A stretch of DNA of 45,814 bases, from the sequence record MG050172. One strand, 5' to 3'. The notes below the pieces were generated by a model. That model did no database searches, had not been told where the DNA came from, and worked only from the letters and a program-made list of their open reading frames with translations. Numbering within the stretch: the stretch's first letter is position 1; every line of letters starts with the position of its first letter. Positions 26,925-36,550 of this stretch are shown here, piece after piece. Source of the stretch: Escherichia phage DTL. The position numbers and the translations under genes were made by a program.

Positions 26925-27813
26925 TTGGAGAAAATCATGTTAAGTACAAAGTTTGAAAATCAGTTGCAAAGCCTTTTTCCTGGCGAGATTGTGACATTAA
27001 TCCAGGTTGACGGAACCTCTTTTGGCAGTCTCGTTTATTCGTTCCACAATGAGAACATTTCATACACACCTGAAGAGATCATGCTAGCCCAAATGAATGG
27101 CGAGCCACTACCAGAGAAAACCATCACCTTTCGTGGTGAAGAGTACGGGCCTCGCCCATTCGGTATCTCGGGCATTAATATGACCTCTGACGGAAAAGCC
27201 AACAAGGTTACACTAACAGTATCAAACGTAGACCAGCGCATTAGCGCATTGATTAGAACATACAACGGACTTGTTAAAGCTAAGGTTACCATATGGATTA
27301 CCACGAGAGATAACATCAATGAAGACGGAAGCATTGCTGATGGTGACTATCGCAGATTTGTTTACTTCATTGAGCGACCGAAGCAGGTTGATTACAAAAC
27401 TGCGTCATTTGAGCTTAGTAGCCCGATGGATATGGATGGCATTTACATCCCTGCCAGACTTGTTTGACTATCGCAGATTTGTTTACTTCATTGAGCGACC
27501 GAAGCAGGTTGATTACAAAACTGCGTCATTTGAGCTTAGTAGCCCGATGGATATGGATGGCATTTACATCCCTGCCAGACTTGTTCAATCGGTTTGCTAT
27601 TGGGCGTCCAGGGGCTGGTATCGTAGCGGTAATGGTTGCGGCTATGCTGGTAATAGATACTTCAACAAGGATGATGAGCCTGTGTCAGACCCCTCATTAG
27701 ACTTCTGCGCAGGAACTGTTAACAGTTGCAAAATTAGGTTTGGAGAGAATAATCAGCTGGACTTTGGTGGTTGCGCGGCAGCAAGTCTTCAGGCTAAAGC
27801 GAATCAATCATAG
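26925..27813 (+). pseudogene. minor tail protein (lambda L-like) frameshifted by a 121-bp tandem duplication
   Basis: Track ORFs 26925..27467 and 27271..27813 both encode DYRRFVYFIERPKQVDYKTASFELSSPMDMDGIYIPARLV in different frames. Confidence 0.6.
27344..27585 (+). repeat. perfect tandem direct duplication, 2 x 121 bp
   Basis: 27344..27464 and 27465..27585 identical base-for-base on hand comparison. Confidence 0.85.
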
Positions 27814-27866
27814 CACTTTTTGTTAAGAGGACGGCCCAGATTTGGGCTATCCTCTAATCTCTTAAA

Positions 27867-28364
27867 TTGGAGACAAAAATGAACTGGAATGAAATTTTCG
27901 AATACAGAGATGGCAAGATCTATTGGAAAGTTAGCCCTGGCAGGAGGGCTAAGGTTGGTTCGGAAGCTGGATCAAATCAAATAAAAGGGTATAGATTTGT
28001 GAAATTTCACGGAGTTTTATATATGACACACATGGTTATTTGGGAGATGCATAACTGTGAAATACCGCATGGAATGGAGGTTGACCATTTAAATCACATT
28101 AGGGACGATAACAGGATAGAGAATTTAAGAGTTGTTACAAAGTCAATTAATCAGAGGAATGCATCTAAAAGAATTGATAATAAAAGCGGTTTTACAGGCG
28201 TTTCTTGGTATCCCAAATATTCAAAGTGGAATGCTTACGCGACAGTAAATTCCAAGAGGTTTAATCTTGGTTACTTTGAATCAAAGCAAGATGCCTGTGT
28301 GGCTGTTAAAAAATTTAGGTCCATAAATTATTTTCATAAAAACCATGGAGTTGATTTATGTTAA
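27867..28364 (+). CDS. HNH homing endonuclease
   Basis: Motif HMVIWEMHNCEIPHGMEVDHLNHIRDDNRIENLR; inserted between L-like and K-like tail genes. Confidence 0.8.
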   Translation: METKMNWNEIFEYRDGKIYWKVSPGRRAKVGSEAGSNQIKGYRFVKFHGVLYMTHMVIWEMHNCEIPHGMEVDHLNHIRDDNRIENLRVVTKSINQRNASKRIDNKSGFTGVSWYPKYSKWNAYATVNSKRFNLGYFESKQDACVAVKKFRSINYFHKNHGVDLC

Positions 28365-29710: not shown

Positions 29711-32700
29711 ATGGCACAAATGATCAAAACAAACACGAGGCTTTGTGATATGTCTGAAGATATTAAGATTTATGGCGCTAAAGGTGGGAGCCAGAAGCAG
29801 CATCAACCAGTGGAGCAGGAAGATAACCTCATTTCACTAAACAAGGTTAAGGTATTGCTTGCTGTAGCTGACGGAGAGGTGGATTCAAACTTCTCAATGA
29901 AGGATTTATACCTTGCTGACGTTCCGGTACAAAACCAGGACGGTAGCTACAACTACGAAGGTGTTCGCGCCGAGTTTCGCGCTGGTACGCAGTATCAGGA
30001 CTATATCGCCGGGCTTGATGGCGCTAACTCAGAGATTCAGGCCTCAAGAGAAATAACTAACGATACCCCGTACATCATTGCGGTTAACAATACTCAGCTT
30101 TCAGCAATTCGAGTAAAGCTATACTGGCCTCGACTAGTTAAGCAAGAAAGTAACGGAGACCTGAACGGAACGACTTGCGAGTACGCAATTGACCTTTCTG
30201 TTAATGGTGGTGCTTACCAGGAATATACTCGCGGAGTTGCAAACGGGAAGACAACAACTGGTTACGACCGCAGCATTCGCGTGAACCTTCCGGCTGAATT
30301 TGATAGCGCACTGGTTCGAATCCGTAAGATTACGCCGGATTCGACGAGTAGCACGCTGGTTAATGGAATGCAGATTACAACCTATCAGGAAGTAATCGAT
30401 GCTAAATTCCGCTACCCGCTTACGGCTCTGGTTTACGTTGAGTTTGGTTCCGACTTGTTCCCTAACGGAATCCCGACAATCTCCATCAAGAAGAGATGGA
30501 AGTTGATTCAGGTCCCGACAAACTACAGACCTGAGACAAGGACTTACAGCGGGACATGGAATGGCCTGTTCAAGATGGCATGGTCAAACAACCCTGCATG
30601 GGTTCTCTATGACTTGGTGACAAACCGCCGATATGGTCTTGATCAGAGAGAGATTGGAGTAGAGATTGATAAATGGGGTCTTTACGAAGCTGCGCAATTC
30701 TGCGACCAGATGGTGCCGGATGGTAAGGGTGGTTTAGAGCCGCGTTATCTTTGCGATATGGTTGTACAGAATAAAGCTGAGGCATACACGCTAATTCGTG
30801 ATATCTGTTCAATATTCCGTGGCCTGACTTTCTATGATGGCGAAAAGATTGGTATCGTGGTTGATAATCCTCGCAACCCATCTTACATCTTCACCAATGA
30901 TAACGTTGTAAACGGATTGTTCAGCCGCACATTTGCCAGTGACAAGAGCCTTTACACTACTGCTAACGTTCAGTTTGATGATGTAGAGAACAACTATCAA
31001 CAGGATGTTGAGCCAGTTTTCGAGCTCGAGGCGACAAGGCGTTTTGGATTTAACCCTGTGGACCTAACTGCAATTGGATGTACTCGCAGAAGTGAAGCAA
31101 ACAGGCGCGGCAGATGGCTCCTGAAAACCAACCTGAGAAGCGAAACCATCAGCTTCACTACCGGGTTGGAAGGCATGATTCCGATGATTGGTGAGGTCAT
31201 TGCGGTCAATGATGCTGCATGGTCGAGCAACTATCAGTTAAACCTTTCCGGTCGTATTGAATCAGTTCAGGGATTGCAGGTTTTCACCCCGTTTAAAGTT
31301 GACGCAGCGCCTGGTGACAGAATTCTTCTGAACAAGCCTGACGGAAGCCCGGAGGCAAGAACTATCGCAAGCGTTTCGGAAGATGGAAGAACTATCAACC
31401 TTAACACTGCTTTCAGTTTTGTGGCTCAACCTGATACTGTTTTTGCAATCGATAAAGATAACCTTGCTCTTCAGCAGTATGTTGTGACCGGGATTCAAAA
31501 AGCAGATTCCGACGGCTCGGACTCATTCCAGTATACGATTACAGCAGTAGAGTATGACCCAAACAAGTATGACGAGATTGACTACGGCGTTAACATTGTT
31601 GATCGCCCGACTTCAATTGTTGAGCCTGACAGATTGTCGCCGCCTGAGAACTTAACAGTATCAAGCTACAGTAAGGTTGTTCAGGGCTTGTCAGTTGAGA
31701 CGATGGTTATCGGATGGGATAAGGCGCCATACGCTAAAACCTACAATGTTCAGTGGAGAAAAGAGAATGGCAACTGGATTAACGTACCAAGAACAGCAAG
31801 TACAGAGGTTGATATCGAAGGTATTTACGCAGGAATCTATGACGTTAGGGTTCGCAGCGTATCAGATACTGAAAACGTGTCTGCCTGGTCTGGCATTGTA
31901 ACCGTATCGCTAACTGGCAAGATTGGTCGCCCATCTGCACCTACGGTTATCACGGCGTCAACTGATGAAGTATTTGGTATCCGTGTTAAATGGGGGTTCC
32001 CTGAAGGCTCTGGCGATACTGCTTACACTGAGCTTCAGCAGGTTCCAGATAATGGTGATGGTACTTACAATCCTGATAATGCAAGTTTGCTTACGTTACT
32101 TCCGTATCCGGCCTATGAATACTGGCACACGCCAATTCAGCCAGGAAAGGTTATCTGGTATCGCGCAAGATTGATTGACAGAATAGGCAATACCTCTGAT
32201 TGGTCTAATTTCGCTAGAGGCATGAGCACTGATGATGCCAACATTATCAACGATTATATCAAGGTTGATATAGAGCAGTCTGAAGGCTTTAAATACCTAC
32301 AGCAGAATGCAATTGAGAAAAACCAGGACATTCAGAATCAGGCTGAGGCAATTATCGAGAACGCATTGGCAAATGATGGCGATGTTCGCAGAATGACAAA
32401 GGAGAATGGCAAGCGCAAGGCTGAATATGTTCAGGCAGTTAATCTTATAGCCGATGAGACTCAGGCACGCGTAGATGCTCTCACGCAGCTTAAGGCGCAG
32501 ATAGATGATGAGATCGTTGGTCAGATTACAACAATTGAAACAGCACTAGCTACAGAGACAGAGGCTAGAGCAACCGCCGACACGGCTTTGAGCGCAAGGG
32601 TTGGTAATAACGAGGCTGCTCTAAACCAGAAGCTTGATGCTTTCTCTAATGCCACGTCAACTGGTGTACAGTACGGTATTAGTCTTGGCCTGAAATACAA

Positions 32701-33136
32701 TGGGCAGACTTATTCATCCGGCATGAGCATGGAGCTTGTTGGCACTGGTGGTAATGTTCGTAGTCAGTTCATCTTTGACGCAAACAGATTCGCTATCAGT
32801 AACGGTATTGGTTCTGGTTCCGGTCAGTGGCAACTCCCCTTCGTTGTCGAGAACGGGAACGTAATCATCCAGAGCGCAGTAATCGGCGATGGCTCAATCA
32901 GCAACGCGAAGATTGGTAACTTTATTCAGTCCAATAACTACGTGGCAGGAACTACAGGTTGGAGGATTGATAAATCAGGAAGTGCAGAGTTAAGCAACGC
33001 AACTGTAAGGGGGAATCTTTACGCCAACAATGGTAACTTTGCTTTTAATGGAACCAACAACACGGTTCAGATTAACGGTAATGGAATCACGGTAAATCTA
33101 CCAAACGGCGGTCGCGTTGTTGTAGGTACGTTCTAA
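29711..33136 (+). CDS. tail tip host-specificity protein (lambda J-like)
   Basis: 1141 aa; blocks such as RIRKITPDSTSS, IQVPTNYRPETRTYSGTWNG and DKWGLYEAAQFCDQMVPDGKGG parallel lambda J as recalled from memory. Confidence 0.8.
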   Translation: MAQMIKTNTRLCDMSEDIKIYGAKGGSQKQHQPVEQEDNLISLNKVKVLLAVADGEVDSNFSMKDLYLADVPVQNQDGSYNYEGVRAEFRAGTQYQDYIAGLDGANSEIQASREITNDTPYIIAVNNTQLSAIRVKLYWPRLVKQESNGDLNGTTCEYAIDLSVNGGAYQEYTRGVANGKTTTGYDRSIRVNLPAEFDSALVRIRKITPDSTSSTLVNGMQITTYQEVIDAKFRYPLTALVYVEFGSDLFPNGIPTISIKKRWKLIQVPTNYRPETRTYSGTWNGLFKMAWSNNPAWVLYDLVTNRRYGLDQREIGVEIDKWGLYEAAQFCDQMVPDGKGGLEPRYLCDMVVQNKAEAYTLIRDICSIFRGLTFYDGEKIGIVVDNPRNPSYIFTNDNVVNGLFSRTFASDKSLYTTANVQFDDVENNYQQDVEPVFELEATRRFGFNPVDLTAIGCTRRSEANRRGRWLLKTNLRSETISFTTGLEGMIPMIGEVIAVNDAAWSSNYQLNLSGRIESVQGLQVFTPFKVDAAPGDRILLNKPDGSPEARTIASVSEDGRTINLNTAFSFVAQPDTVFAIDKDNLALQQYVVTGIQKADSDGSDSFQYTITAVEYDPNKYDEIDYGVNIVDRPTSIVEPDRLSPPENLTVSSYSKVVQGLSVETMVIGWDKAPYAKTYNVQWRKENGNWINVPRTASTEVDIEGIYAGIYDVRVRSVSDTENVSAWSGIVTVSLTGKIGRPSAPTVITASTDEVFGIRVKWGFPEGSGDTAYTELQQVPDNGDGTYNPDNASLLTLLPYPAYEYWHTPIQPGKVIWYRARLIDRIGNTSDWSNFARGMSTDDANIINDYIKVDIEQSEGFKYLQQNAIEKNQDIQNQAEAIIENALANDGDVRRMTKENGKRKAEYVQAVNLIADETQARVDALTQLKAQIDDEIVGQITTIETALATETEARATADTALSARVGNNEAALNQKLDAFSNATSTGVQYGISLGLKYNGQTYSSGMSMELVGTGGNVRSQFIFDANRFAISNGIGSGSGQWQLPFVVENGNVIIQSAVIGDGSISNAKIGNFIQSNNYVAGTTGWRIDKSGSAELSNATVRGNLYANNGNFAFNGTNNTVQINGNGITVNLPNGGRVVVGTF

Positions 33137-33142
33137 AATAAA

Positions 33143-33162
33143 AGCCCCTTTCGGGGCTTTAT
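33143..33162. terminator. bidirectional terminator between convergent genes
   Basis: A-run, AGCCCC-TTTC-GGGGCT, T-rich tail. Confidence 0.65.
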
Positions 33163-33167
33163 CTTTA

Positions 33168-34133
33168 TCAGTACATGTTTGGTATGTACGGCAACTGCAT
33201 TGATATGTTTGTATTGAATGGAAATTTAGCGCCAGTCTTTGTTGAGTAGTTTCCGATCACACTGCAAAACTCAGACCTGACAGAACCATTAGACATTACA
33301 ACCCCTTTATATCTAAGGTTGTTATAGCCACCAGTTACGCGAGTATAAGCTCCGGTCCTAAGTATGGGGAAGTATCCGTCACCTATTGACTGAAATGAGT
33401 TTGATATCTGAATGAATCCACCAAGCACAAAAGGCCTCTTGACAGTAGAGAATACAACCTGGCCGGCCGGGTTTGCTATTGTTATCCCCGGCCCGCCAAC
33501 CGGCGCAGTGTTGTTGAATATAACCAGGTCAACGACAACTGATGCCGACACGTTATCTATGCCGCCGTATGTGTTATTCCTGCAAAGAATCCTAGACCCA
33601 TCAAACTCGAGCGTAACGTTTGGATTACTCCACCTACCAAACGGGATTCCAGTTATTGGTAGTGTATAACTCCCATTCACCGTAACTCTACCAACAAACT
33701 GAGCTGTCATTAGCCTTGAGTTTGTCGTTATAGAGATAAAGTCAGTTGAGTTGGCAACAAGTATGCCTTGACCCGTGGACGCACCTGTTATTTCAAAGCA
33801 GTTTCCTGAGAAGTTTATCAGCCTTCCTTTAGCGCCGTTAAAGTTGCTAATATTTATTCTTCCTTGCGTATTTGATACCCGCTGGAATCCATTCATATAG
33901 TAAACCTCAGGTATAACATTGAAGTCTATAACATCAACAGCCTTTATTGGCAATGCGAATGCGGTTGATCCATCTGTTTGGCTAAGTGAAAATGTAAGAC
34001 CCCCAGACTGAGATGCAAAACTTTTAGTTGGAATAGATCCGGTCACATTAGGTGCTCTTAAGCCGGACGTTATCTGCATTGCTGGACTTCCATCATTCAG
34101 GTCTATTAGAATACCCTGTGGCATTATTTCCAC
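33168..34133 (-). CDS. hypothetical protein, possible receptor-binding protein
   Basis: 321 aa, Gly/Asn/Thr-rich; co-transcribed downstream of the Cor-like gene. Confidence 0.4.
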
Positions 34134-34366
34134 TCCTTAGAACCATGGTCTTTAATGGAGCCACCGTAACCGCCACCAGTGGCCTTAATTCCATCGTAGC
34201 GCACATCAACTTCGCCAGCTGGAACAACCACACCATTTTTCCATTTAGCCACGCATACGCCGCTTGCTTGCGTTGCACACCAACCATCAGGACGTGGACC
34301 TGATGAACAACCAACTGTCATTATTACTGCTGCTGAGATGATTACTGATTTGATGAAGTTAGTCAC
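34124..34366 (-). CDS. putative Cor-like superinfection-exclusion lipoprotein
   Basis: 80 aa, lipobox TVGCSS, GTG start, placed just beyond the J-like gene. Confidence 0.45.
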
Positions 34367-34399
34367 TTTGTACTCCTTAGTTAGTATGTTTCGTTTCGA

Positions 34400-34860
34400 T
34401 GGGATAACTATACAACCGTCAGTGAGGAATGTCTTTAGCTATTCGTGCTATTGTATACACGTAACCGATGTAACTGCGTGTATACCAGTGCCATCCGCGA
34501 GAAATCGTATACGCCTAGTTACGCCTAGTTACGCATTGGTTACACTAAAATATCTATATATATCAACCTTTTACTATTATTATTATTATTATATATATTA
34601 CTGTGTATATCATGTAACTACCTCTATAGGGTGTTGCGGTTATAAATTTCTAATATGTACATTTATACAGTATCTATCAACCAGCACACCAACGCACCCT
34701 CCGCGAGAAGCGGTATACACGATATACACGCTGGTTACGCTGAGCTATGGCTGGCTTGATATGCCAAAAAACGTAACTAGTGCCAACGCCTACACGTAAT
34801 TACAAAGATTCACGCGTAAGTTTGAATCAACGATTGGAGAAACCAATTGGACCCAAGCCA
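34400..34860. promoter_or_regulatory. divergent control region B: iteron-like TAGTTACGC repeats, (TA)n and (ATT)n tracts
   Basis: CCTAGTTACG x2 at ~34513..34537, (ATT)n at ~34574..34592, GAGCTATGGCTGGCT block; homologous to 7740..8170. Confidence 0.5.
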
Positions 34861-34913: not shown

Positions 34914-35108
34914 ATGACCTACTACATTATCAAAGAGAAAAACAATGCGCTGTTCGGCGACTGCTACTTTGGCGGCCACTCTGGATACACCACAGATAAG
35001 AACGAGGCCGACAGATTCGAGACTAAAGAAGAAGCCCGAGATGTTCTGACCGGGTACTTCACTAAAGAAGATTTGAAATCTGTTAAGGTAGTTAAGGTTA
35101 AAATTTAA
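34914..35108 (+). CDS. hypothetical protein
   Basis: ATG 34914 preferred over track start 34860; preceded by CATCGAAAGCGAAC leader variant. Confidence 0.35.
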   Translation: MTYYIIKEKNNALFGDCYFGGHSGYTTDKNEADRFETKEEARDVLTGYFTKEDLKSVKVVKVKI

Positions 35109-35109
35109 A

Positions 35110-35583
35110 ATGGAATACAAACTCTACTTCAATTACGACAATGGAAAGTTGATATGGAAAGTCAAAAAGAAATCAGGAAATCCGGGCTCAGAGGCTGGTA
35201 GTGTGATGAGGGATGGTTACATCATGGTTGGTTTAAATAGAAAACTAATTCTTGCTCACAGAATAGTTTGGGAAATGCTTAAAGGCCCGATACCTGAAGG
35301 TATGGAGATTGATCATATTAATCATTGTAGGTCAGACAATAGGATAGAAAACTTAAGGATGGTGAGTAAGCCGATAAATCAAAGAAATAGATCGAGATCA
35401 AAAAATAACACAAGCGTATTCACGGGAGTTTGTTGGAGTAAGTCAGCTTCAAAGTTGGTCTCATCAATGAAAGTTAACGGGAAAAAAATTCATCTTGGAT
35501 CGTTCGATGAAATACAAGATGCAATAGCTGCAAGAAAGTCAGCAAACCAAAAGTATAAATTTCACAAAAATCATGGAGAATAA
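35110..35583 (+). CDS. HNH homing endonuclease
   Basis: Motif HRIVWEMLKGPIPEGMEIDHINHCRSDNRIENLR. Confidence 0.8.
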   Translation: MEYKLYFNYDNGKLIWKVKKKSGNPGSEAGSVMRDGYIMVGLNRKLILAHRIVWEMLKGPIPEGMEIDHINHCRSDNRIENLRMVSKPINQRNRSRSKNNTSVFTGVCWSKSASKLVSSMKVNGKKIHLGSFDEIQDAIAARKSANQKYKFHKNHGE

Positions 35584-36550
35584 AATGTTTAAGGTTTTTA
35601 CGCGAGAAGAGTTAAGCAACGAAGAGTATCACTCAGAGTCTGACCACATCTCCGGTAGCTCACTTGTCGAGATTATCCAGGGCTCGCCAGCTAAGTGGAA
35701 ATTCAAGCGGCGTAATAGCGACAGCAAGGCGCTAAAGTTTGGAACCCTAAGCCACACGATGATTCTGGAGCAGGATGTATTTGATAAAGAATACCTTCGC
35801 GAAACCGATCTTGATGCCATCGAAGGCTTAATTACAAGCCAGACCGGATTATCAGCAGCACTTAAAAAAGTTGGCGTAGCTGGCACGTCTGGGAAGGGGT
35901 ATAGCGAGCTCGTAGAGATGATGTATCGTTCAGGTGAGTATTGGGATGTTAAATGGCTAATTGAGCAGCAGGATAGTGCTCAGGCTATTGCGGAGGGCAA
36001 GGAGCTAGTTAGCGCAGCAGATTACGACAAGGTTGTCGCGATGCGCGAGGTTCTTTGTAATATTCCTGCGTATGATGCAATTGTGAACAGTGAGACTGCG
36101 CAGAAGGAGTTATCAATCTTCGGTGAGATTCTAGGTGTTGGCGTTAAGATTCGAATTGACCACGTAGATGTTATTGATGGGGTTGTATGCATTACCGACC
36201 TGAAGACGACAGCCAGCGCATCACCTCAGGAGTTTGGTAGACTTGCATTCAAGCATGGTTATCTTGCAAAAATGGCGCTACAGCACGATGTTTTTGTTAG
36301 GGCTTTTAATGAAAAAAGAAAAACAAAAGTAAGGCTACTTGCGATCGAGAAAGAGGAGCCTTACCTACCAATGCTTTACAGCATTACAGAAGAGCAACTG
36401 AAGGTTGGCCGCAGGATGTATTTAGAGGCGCTTGCCACTTACAAAAAGTGCAAAGAGAATGATGAGTGGCCAGGTTATGCAATGGGCGCAACAGAGATTG
36501 ATTTAGATGTTCCTGAGTGGGATATGAGGAAGTATAGAGATGAAATATAG
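35573..36550 (+). CDS. PD-(D/E)XK family exonuclease (RecE/YqaJ-like recombination nuclease)
   Basis: Motif ITDLKT (D-x-K core); sits upstream of the ERF and SSB genes. Confidence 0.55.
   Translation: MENKMFKVFTREELSNEEYHSESDHISGSSLVEIIQGSPAKWKFKRRNSDSKALKFGTLSHTMILEQDVFDKEYLRETDLDAIEGLITSQTGLSAALKKVGVAGTSGKGYSELVEMMYRSGEYWDVKWLIEQQDSAQAIAEGKELVSAADYDKVVAMREVLCNIPAYDAIVNSETAQKELSIFGEILGVGVKIRIDHVDVIDGVVCITDLKTTASASPQEFGRLAFKHGYLAKMALQHDVFVRAFNEKRKTKVRLLAIEKEEPYLPMLYSITEEQLKVGRRMYLEALATYKKCKENDEWPGYAMGATEIDLDVPEWDMRKYRDEI

Follow-up and report, generated by a model that had tools for sequence, protein, structure and literature searches.

The receptor-binding proteins encoded beside gpJ were sorted in a 2026 preprint into four unrelated families at one locus, each specific for FhuA, BtuB, LptD or YncD, and the J tips were found to be specific to each binding-protein family (bioRxiv 10.64898/2026.04.02.716166). 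Membership of the LptD-specific family requires, in the same work, an identity above 30% at a coverage above 99%. Maffei et al. reported that the phages AugustePiccard (Bas01) and Oekolampad (Bas18) are LptD-dependent, and the allelic form downstream of gpJ was matched to LptD by resistant lptD mutants (PMC8594841). Black et al. showed that OzMSK is also LptD-dependent and does not infect lptD loop-deletion strains (PMC13035648). AugustePiccard needs NupG in addition, through a domain of J (bioRxiv 10.64898/2026.04.02.716166). Both kinds of product of such loci have been solved on the receptor (Dunbar et al. 2025, PMC12685063). Chain C of PDB 9RPT is the receptor-binding protein of Oekolampad on an open state of LptDE, where it is deeply inserted, buries an interface of about 1,700 Å² and contacts the extracellular loops EL3-5 and EL11. 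Chain D of PDB 9RPS, described in the depositors' paper (PMC12685063), is Rtp45 of phage Rtp with Shigella flexneri LptDE-LptM, determined by cryo-EM. Rtp45 is located at the periplasmic face next to LptD strands 5-8, between LptE and LptM, and forms a beta-sheet with LptD through its residues 30-35; a Cys30-Cys38 disulfide is present, and a hairpin reaching up the lumen contacts LptD and lifts EL4 by up to 20 Å into a conformation in which the binding protein cannot dock (PMC12685063). Dunbar et al. also noted that the AlphaFold3 models of Rtp45 and of the Rtp45-LptDE complex were wrong (PMC12685063).

The window analysed here, i.e., the whole stretch of 45,814 nucleotides from Escherichia phage DTL (MG050172), carries two ORFs on the minus strand beyond the J-like gene. 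The features of the locus are as follows.

29711-33136, plus strand: J-like central tail-fibre / tip-attachment gene, 1141 aa, recognised by its Pfam domains
33141-33160, both strands: bidirectional intrinsic terminator hairpin AAAGCCCC-TTTC-GGGGCTTT, from a terminator scan
33168-34124, minus strand: predicted LptD-type receptor-binding-protein gene, 318 aa, ATG at 34124-34122, PF20051
34133-34138, minus strand: AAGGAG ribosome-binding site of the binding-protein gene, sequence read directly, ATG eight nt downstream
34124-34366, minus strand: predicted Rtp45-type lipoprotein gene, 80-aa precursor, GTG start, PF24052
34373-34378, minus strand: AAGGAG ribosome-binding site of the lipoprotein gene, sequence read directly, GTG six nt downstream
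34407-34435, minus strand: candidate sigma-70 promoter AAGACA-17-TATAGT, by consensus scan only, 9 of 12 matches

Both ORFs can be taken as real genes and not chance ORFs because of their Pfam E-values, 4.8e-38 for the lipoprotein and 3.8e-139 for the binding protein. The lipoprotein gene begins with GTG at 34366-34364. The second ORF at its maximal extent spans 33168-34133, with a GTG start and 321 aa, and this GTG abuts the AAGGAG at 34138-34133 and has one base (34133) in common with it. The binding protein is very probably 318 aa long and not 321, since the ribosome-binding site serves the ATG and every annotated homologue starts at the equivalent ATG, with MPQGIL or MAQGI. This ribosome-binding site lies within the 3' end of the lipoprotein gene, whose stop codon overlaps the ATG at 34124-34122 (TAATG); the stop/start overlap and the second ribosome-binding site therefore indicate translational coupling of the two genes. 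The pair and the J-like gene are convergent, with the terminator hairpin between them. The hairpin was found on both strands and is perfect, with eight pairs (five of them G-C) and T-runs on each side, and a terminator is annotated at the equivalent position in ETEP102 and CEB_EC3a. The pair is a two-gene operon and has its terminator in common with gpJ. An earlier sequence-only reading of this DNA had described an 80-aa ORF with a GTG start and a lipobox, transcribed convergently toward the J-like gene together with a 321-aa Gly/Asn/Thr-rich protein. The first ORF, its start, its lipobox (Cys20) and the convergent orientation were all borne out; the composition of the partner also held roughly (G 11.6%, S 9.7%, N 9.1% and T 8.5%), and its length has to be corrected to 318 aa.

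The sigma-70 candidate at 34407-34435 lies some 40 nt ahead of the lipoprotein GTG, and the consensus scan gave a second one at 34652-34680. Both are candidate promoters by consensus match and carry no evidence of function. The 490-bp divergent intergenic region contains, within 34445-34730, three of the five GTATACAC sites of the window, where about one would be expected by chance window-wide. It also contains an exact 10-nt tandem duplication (TACGCCTAGT twice, at 34510-34529), a TAA/TA-rich tract, and inverted repeats at 34603-34616 and 34716-34729. These elements may act as operators or promoters of the early and adsorption transcripts, which run divergently. In CEB_EC3a the lipoprotein gene is preceded by Ec3a_40, a DNA-binding-protein gene of about 650 bp which the window does not have (34367-34860), and OzMSK and AugustePiccard have a DNA methyltransferase gene in the slot upstream of the cassette. 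The differing upstream genes therefore mark this slot as a site of variable cargo, and the cassette stands here as a two-gene operon on its own.

The 80-aa product matched PF24052 'Phage_lipoprotein' over residues 1-79 of 80 (E 4.8e-38, 129.4 bits; the gathering cut-off is 27 bits). The lipoprotein signal posited by the sequence-only reading passed a PROSITE-style lipobox rule, with MTVG directly before Cys20, Lys6 in the n-region and a hydrophobic core. The mature protein, counted from Cys20, which is predicted to be lipidated, has 61 aa, and its +2 residue is Ser. In E. coli, Ser at this position leads to outer-membrane sorting by the Lol pathway. Among solved structures the protein matched Rtp45 (9RPS chain D, E 2.7e-38). 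It has the same sequence as Rtp45 from residue 20 through residue 61 (the first 42 of the mature protein), and this block holds the LptD-contacting part, including the 30-35 strand and the hairpin as well as Cys30 and Cys38, which are invariant across the family alignment. The two proteins differ solely at a few positions of the signal peptide and by a four-residue Gly-rich C-terminal insertion. We assign the 80-aa protein to the superinfection-exclusion lipoproteins of the Rtp45 type, and because of its identity to Rtp45 it would be expected to bind LptDE and to exclude LptD-dependent phages. Cloned rtp45 reportedly confers resistance to Rtp, and later papers cite the original work on Rtp (Wietzorrek 2006) in this sense.

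The lipoprotein family comes in a 76-aa form (Rtp45, AugustePiccard) and in 80/81-aa forms, and the window protein is among the latter. In these longer forms a Gly-rich insertion, TGGGYGG, directly follows the block identical to Rtp45 (window 34124-34190). Podophages of about 76 kb and a lambdoid phage (e.g., ECBP2, vB_EcoP_SU7, Bas86-Bas91 and mEp021) also have Rtp45-like homologues, of 36-45% identity, and the same group gave weak DUF6453-like matches of about 28% identity. From this distribution, modules directed at LptD, or at least their lipoprotein, would seem to reach past the small siphophages.

The sequence-only reading had named the lipoprotein as a Cor-type exclusion factor. Spelled out, this would make it a Cor homologue which inactivates FhuA as in T1, phi80 and N15, with the larger protein as an accessory component. 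Its size, its lipobox and its opposite-strand position near gpJ do recall cor of T1 (75 aa), which lies on the opposite strand beyond J; T1 Cor scored 17.7 bits on PF24052, below the cut-off of 27, and the Rtp45-type and Cor family profiles aligned at full length with 89% probability in hhalign. The source of this likeness is the signal peptide and lipobox, to which the BLASTP match between the window lipoprotein and T1 Cor was confined (14 of 37 residues), and when the signal peptides were left out hhalign gave 1% probability over 14 columns (E 0.05). In the family alignments the Cor motifs RAGYPFSFHYVSE..NFK.H.C are absent from the window lipoprotein and the Rtp45-family motifs are absent from Cor, and no Pfam family, PF24052 included, is annotated on the Cor homologues. 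The T1 genes after J, ST32 and ST31, had no Pfam match and thus no family in common with the DUF6453 partner found here, and the window lipoprotein is near-identical to a protein solved on LptDE. An FhuA-directed Cor system is therefore extremely unlikely at this locus. Membership of the Cor family was rejected on the confined match, the hhalign result for the mature part and the absent motifs, and a pairing with an FhuA-type adsorption module was rejected on the partner gene, which is DUF6453 and of the LptD type. What stands of the earlier proposal is a small, apparently outer-membrane-targeted lipoprotein positioned like T1 cor, now placed in the Rtp45 family (PF24052); the further idea that it blocks the receptor of the phage appears right in outline, through the near-identity to Rtp45. 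The partner had been taken for an additional receptor-binding or exclusion component. Receptor binding is indeed its predicted role, and 'additional' is the wrong word for a protein whose relatives are dedicated receptor-binding proteins (PMC12685063, PMC8594841).

The 318-aa protein matched PF20051 'DUF6453' with 463 bits (E 3.8e-139, cut-off 25 bits), and it matched 9RPT chain C over its full length among solved structures (E 2.2e-66). An AlphaFold2 model built with 57 homologues reached a pLDDT of 90 and a pTM of 0.89 and predicted an all-beta fold, a double beta-sandwich. In a Foldseek search with this model, 9rpt_C was the sole significant PDB match (E 2.3e-21, target-normalised TM 0.85, rmsd 3.5 Å), and the next match had an E-value of 0.5. 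At 100% coverage the protein is 65% identical to that of OzMSK, 48% to that of AugustePiccard and 43% to that of Oekolampad; its closest isolate is ETEP102 (85% aa identity), and a metagenomic protein reaches 94%. Since 43-65% identity at full coverage exceeds the more than 30% and more than 99% of the published definition, the protein is placed in the LptD-specific family, and we regard it as the predicted dedicated receptor-binding protein of the phage, of the LptD type. PHROGs offers uninformative labels only for both the lipoprotein and the binding protein. The label of phrog_1265, 'membrane protein; moron, auxiliary metabolic gene and host takeover', together with the many RefSeq homologues called 'membrane protein', would make the 318-aa protein a membrane protein or moron without a role in adsorption. 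The label is an unverified automatic annotation, the protein is free of hydrophobic segments (its Kyte-Doolittle mean over 19 aa peaks at 1.3), and its predicted all-beta fold matches a solved receptor-binding protein in its receptor-bound form. The label was rejected on hydropathy and predicted fold, and we give such a role hardly any credence.

By homology the receptor implied for this protein is LptD, not FhuA. Family membership, fold and synteny are the grounds on which the specificity was transferred, and on these grounds LptD is likely to be the terminal receptor of this allele, with the specificity being extrapolated from binders at 43-65% identity. A receptor is known for some DUF6453 proteins only, and Klebsiella and Salmonella phages and prophages also encode members of the family. 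Further DUF6453 proteins, of 46-50% identity, were seen on megabase-scale Citrobacter and Salmonella contigs, presumably prophages.

The J-like protein contains the Pfam domains FNIII-A_GpJ, Phage-tail_3 and Phage_Tail_Tip. Its C-terminal residues, about 45 in number, align closely with those of OzMSK, AugustePiccard and the more distant Oekolampad, and differ from those of T1, which is of the FhuA type. By this alignment the C-terminus is that of LptD-module phages, and the grouping fits the reported family-specific J tips. The same residues are presumed to be the docking site of the binding protein, and the docking on J was deduced from earlier work (PMC8594841; bioRxiv 10.64898/2026.04.02.716166). 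The order of lipoprotein gene and then binding-protein gene, convergent on gpJ, is also seen in ETEP102, OzMSK, AugustePiccard, Oekolampad and CEB_EC3a. The window is the genome of a T1-like coliphage of the Drexlerviridae, Braunvirinae/Guelphvirus-like. Its nearest relative is vB_EcoS_CEB_EC3a (Braunvirinae, Guelphvirus), at roughly 88% identity with 80% coverage of the part queried, 22000-45814. Two ORFs with HNH_3 endonuclease matches (E about 1e-19) are found at 27867-28364 and 35110-35583, the first of them also with a weak AP2-like domain, and their positions correspond to the two gaps of the CEB_EC3a alignment, 27806-28358 and 35101-35588. Free-standing homing endonucleases seem to have been inserted at both places, in one case within the tail genes and in the other ahead of the exonuclease gene.

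The comparative analysis showed that the three genes do not diverge alike. The nucleotide identity to CEB_EC3a was 89.6% for the J gene, 64.3% for the binding-protein gene and 86.8% for the lipoprotein gene; the corresponding values for ETEP102 were 66.8%, 75.7% and 89.7%. The breakpoints against CEB_EC3a coincide with the boundaries of the binding-protein gene. The contrast in identity and the breakpoints therefore point to a binding-protein allele whose history differs from that of its neighbours, in line with horizontal exchange, which Maffei et al. describe as frequent (PMC8594841). In the conservation profile of the binding-protein family, residues 1-25 and the core are conserved, and variation is greatest in residues 31-110 and 281-310; these variable segments may well include the receptor-contacting loops. 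Among Drexlerviridae the lipoprotein is conserved at 82-90% and the binding protein at 41-65%. Plausibly, the lipoprotein is held constant by its contact with a constrained lumenal and periplasmic surface of an essential protein.

Such divergence raises the question of whether this allele still uses LptD, and in the same manner. It is conceivable, and in our view rather unlikely, that the divergent allele engages LptD differently, through other extracellular loops or another conformational state, or has a second receptor, with the lipoprotein acting as a generic cross-protective block. If a different engagement of LptD were true, the resistance mutations that are common in EL4 and EL11 might fail to stop the phage, and under either a different engagement or a second receptor the Rtp45-type lipoprotein would block all LptD-directed siphophages. 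Another version keeps the LptD-type architecture and supposes that the allele now binds a different outer-membrane receptor, or depends on a second receptor, with the lipoprotein retained as a carried-over factor against competing LptD phages. The sharp island of divergence (64% nucleotide identity to CEB_EC3a between flanks of 87-90%) would suit a switch, as would the variable segments of the family, none of which lies in the conserved N-terminal part. Black et al. distinguished three loop-sequence groupings with possibly different binding modes (PMC13035648), and AugustePiccard requires NupG together with LptD. Against a switch, the family at this locus predicted LptD without exception in at least 12 tested phages, even at about 35% identity between members, and OzMSK, at 65% identity to the window protein, is LptD-dependent. 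An exclusion protein is also expected to match the receptor of its own phage, and J is close to that of CEB_EC3a (89.6% at the nucleotide level), with a C-terminus of the LptD-module type over the roughly 45 residues compared. We judge this version, a switched or second receptor, to be improbable.

The reading that we prefer, and hold to be very likely, is that the cassette is the LptD-type host-recognition module of a T1-like coliphage, composed of a receptor-binding protein and an Rtp45-type exclusion lipoprotein. The binding protein would attach non-covalently at the C-terminal tip of the J-like fibre, and its distal loops would insert into the extracellular mouth of the barrel of LptD, the terminal receptor within LptDE, the lipopolysaccharide translocon. 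The 80-aa product would be exported, lipidated at Cys20 and, because its +2 residue is Ser, routed to the inner leaflet of the outer membrane, where it would bind the periplasmic side of LptDE and push its hairpin up the lumen of LptD, by which extracellular loop 4 would be displaced. With loop 4 displaced, the binding proteins of this and related phages could not dock, resulting in superinfection exclusion, and the block of LptD would also save progeny from loss on cell debris. The transfer of the Rtp45 mechanism seems well justified because the ordered N-terminal two-thirds of the mature lipoprotein are identical.

The system itself is already well described, and the window adds a moderately divergent allele to it, nothing categorically new. 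Phages directed at LptD attract interest in phage therapy and 'phage steering', and also as laboratory or fermenter contaminants that escape fhuA (tonA) strains (PMC13035648). The value for annotation is that sequence alone predicts the essential LptD channel as the terminal receptor together with an exclusion factor of the Rtp45 type. The allele, 85% identical to that of the nearest isolate and 65% to that of the nearest tested phage, offers one more variant for mapping the LptD-recognition residues, with no new mechanism.

As compared to the exclusion lipoproteins Cor (T1, phi80 and N15) and Llp (T5), the window lipoprotein shares a small size of about 60 mature residues, an internal disulfide and a gene beside the adsorption genes, and it is proposed to act, as they do, on the receptor of its own phage from the periplasm. 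The target of Cor and Llp is the TonB-dependent transporter FhuA, whereas that of the window lipoprotein would be LptDE. Cor and Llp work by reverse allostery (PMC9586334), and the Rtp45 type by sterically pushing loop 4 aside from within the lumen of the barrel (PMC12685063); the mature parts have no detectable homology. The lipoprotein would work like Cor and Llp in outline, yet it is outside the Cor family. The closest known counterparts of the second product of the locus are LptD binders. The proteins bas18_0025 of Oekolampad (9RPT), Rtp44 and bas01_0028 of AugustePiccard, and OzMSK_038 share the full-length family and the predicted double beta-sandwich fold with the window protein. The conserved N-terminal 25 residues, the locus and the orientation are also the same in Oekolampad, AugustePiccard and OzMSK as in the window, with the identity to the verified LptD binders being only 43-65%. 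The assignment of the pair as such a module is, in our estimation, highly probable. The closest counterpart of the lipoprotein is Rtp45 (UniProt Q333D9, PDB 9RPS), which has PF24052, the signal peptide, the lipobox and the cysteine pair in common with it. Rtp45 is the 76-aa form and ends in GSSGSVRDY, whereas the window protein is the 80-aa form with the four-residue Gly-rich insertion in its tail. In loci of the Rtp45 type, as in the window, the lipoprotein gene lies immediately upstream of the binding-protein gene and in the same orientation.
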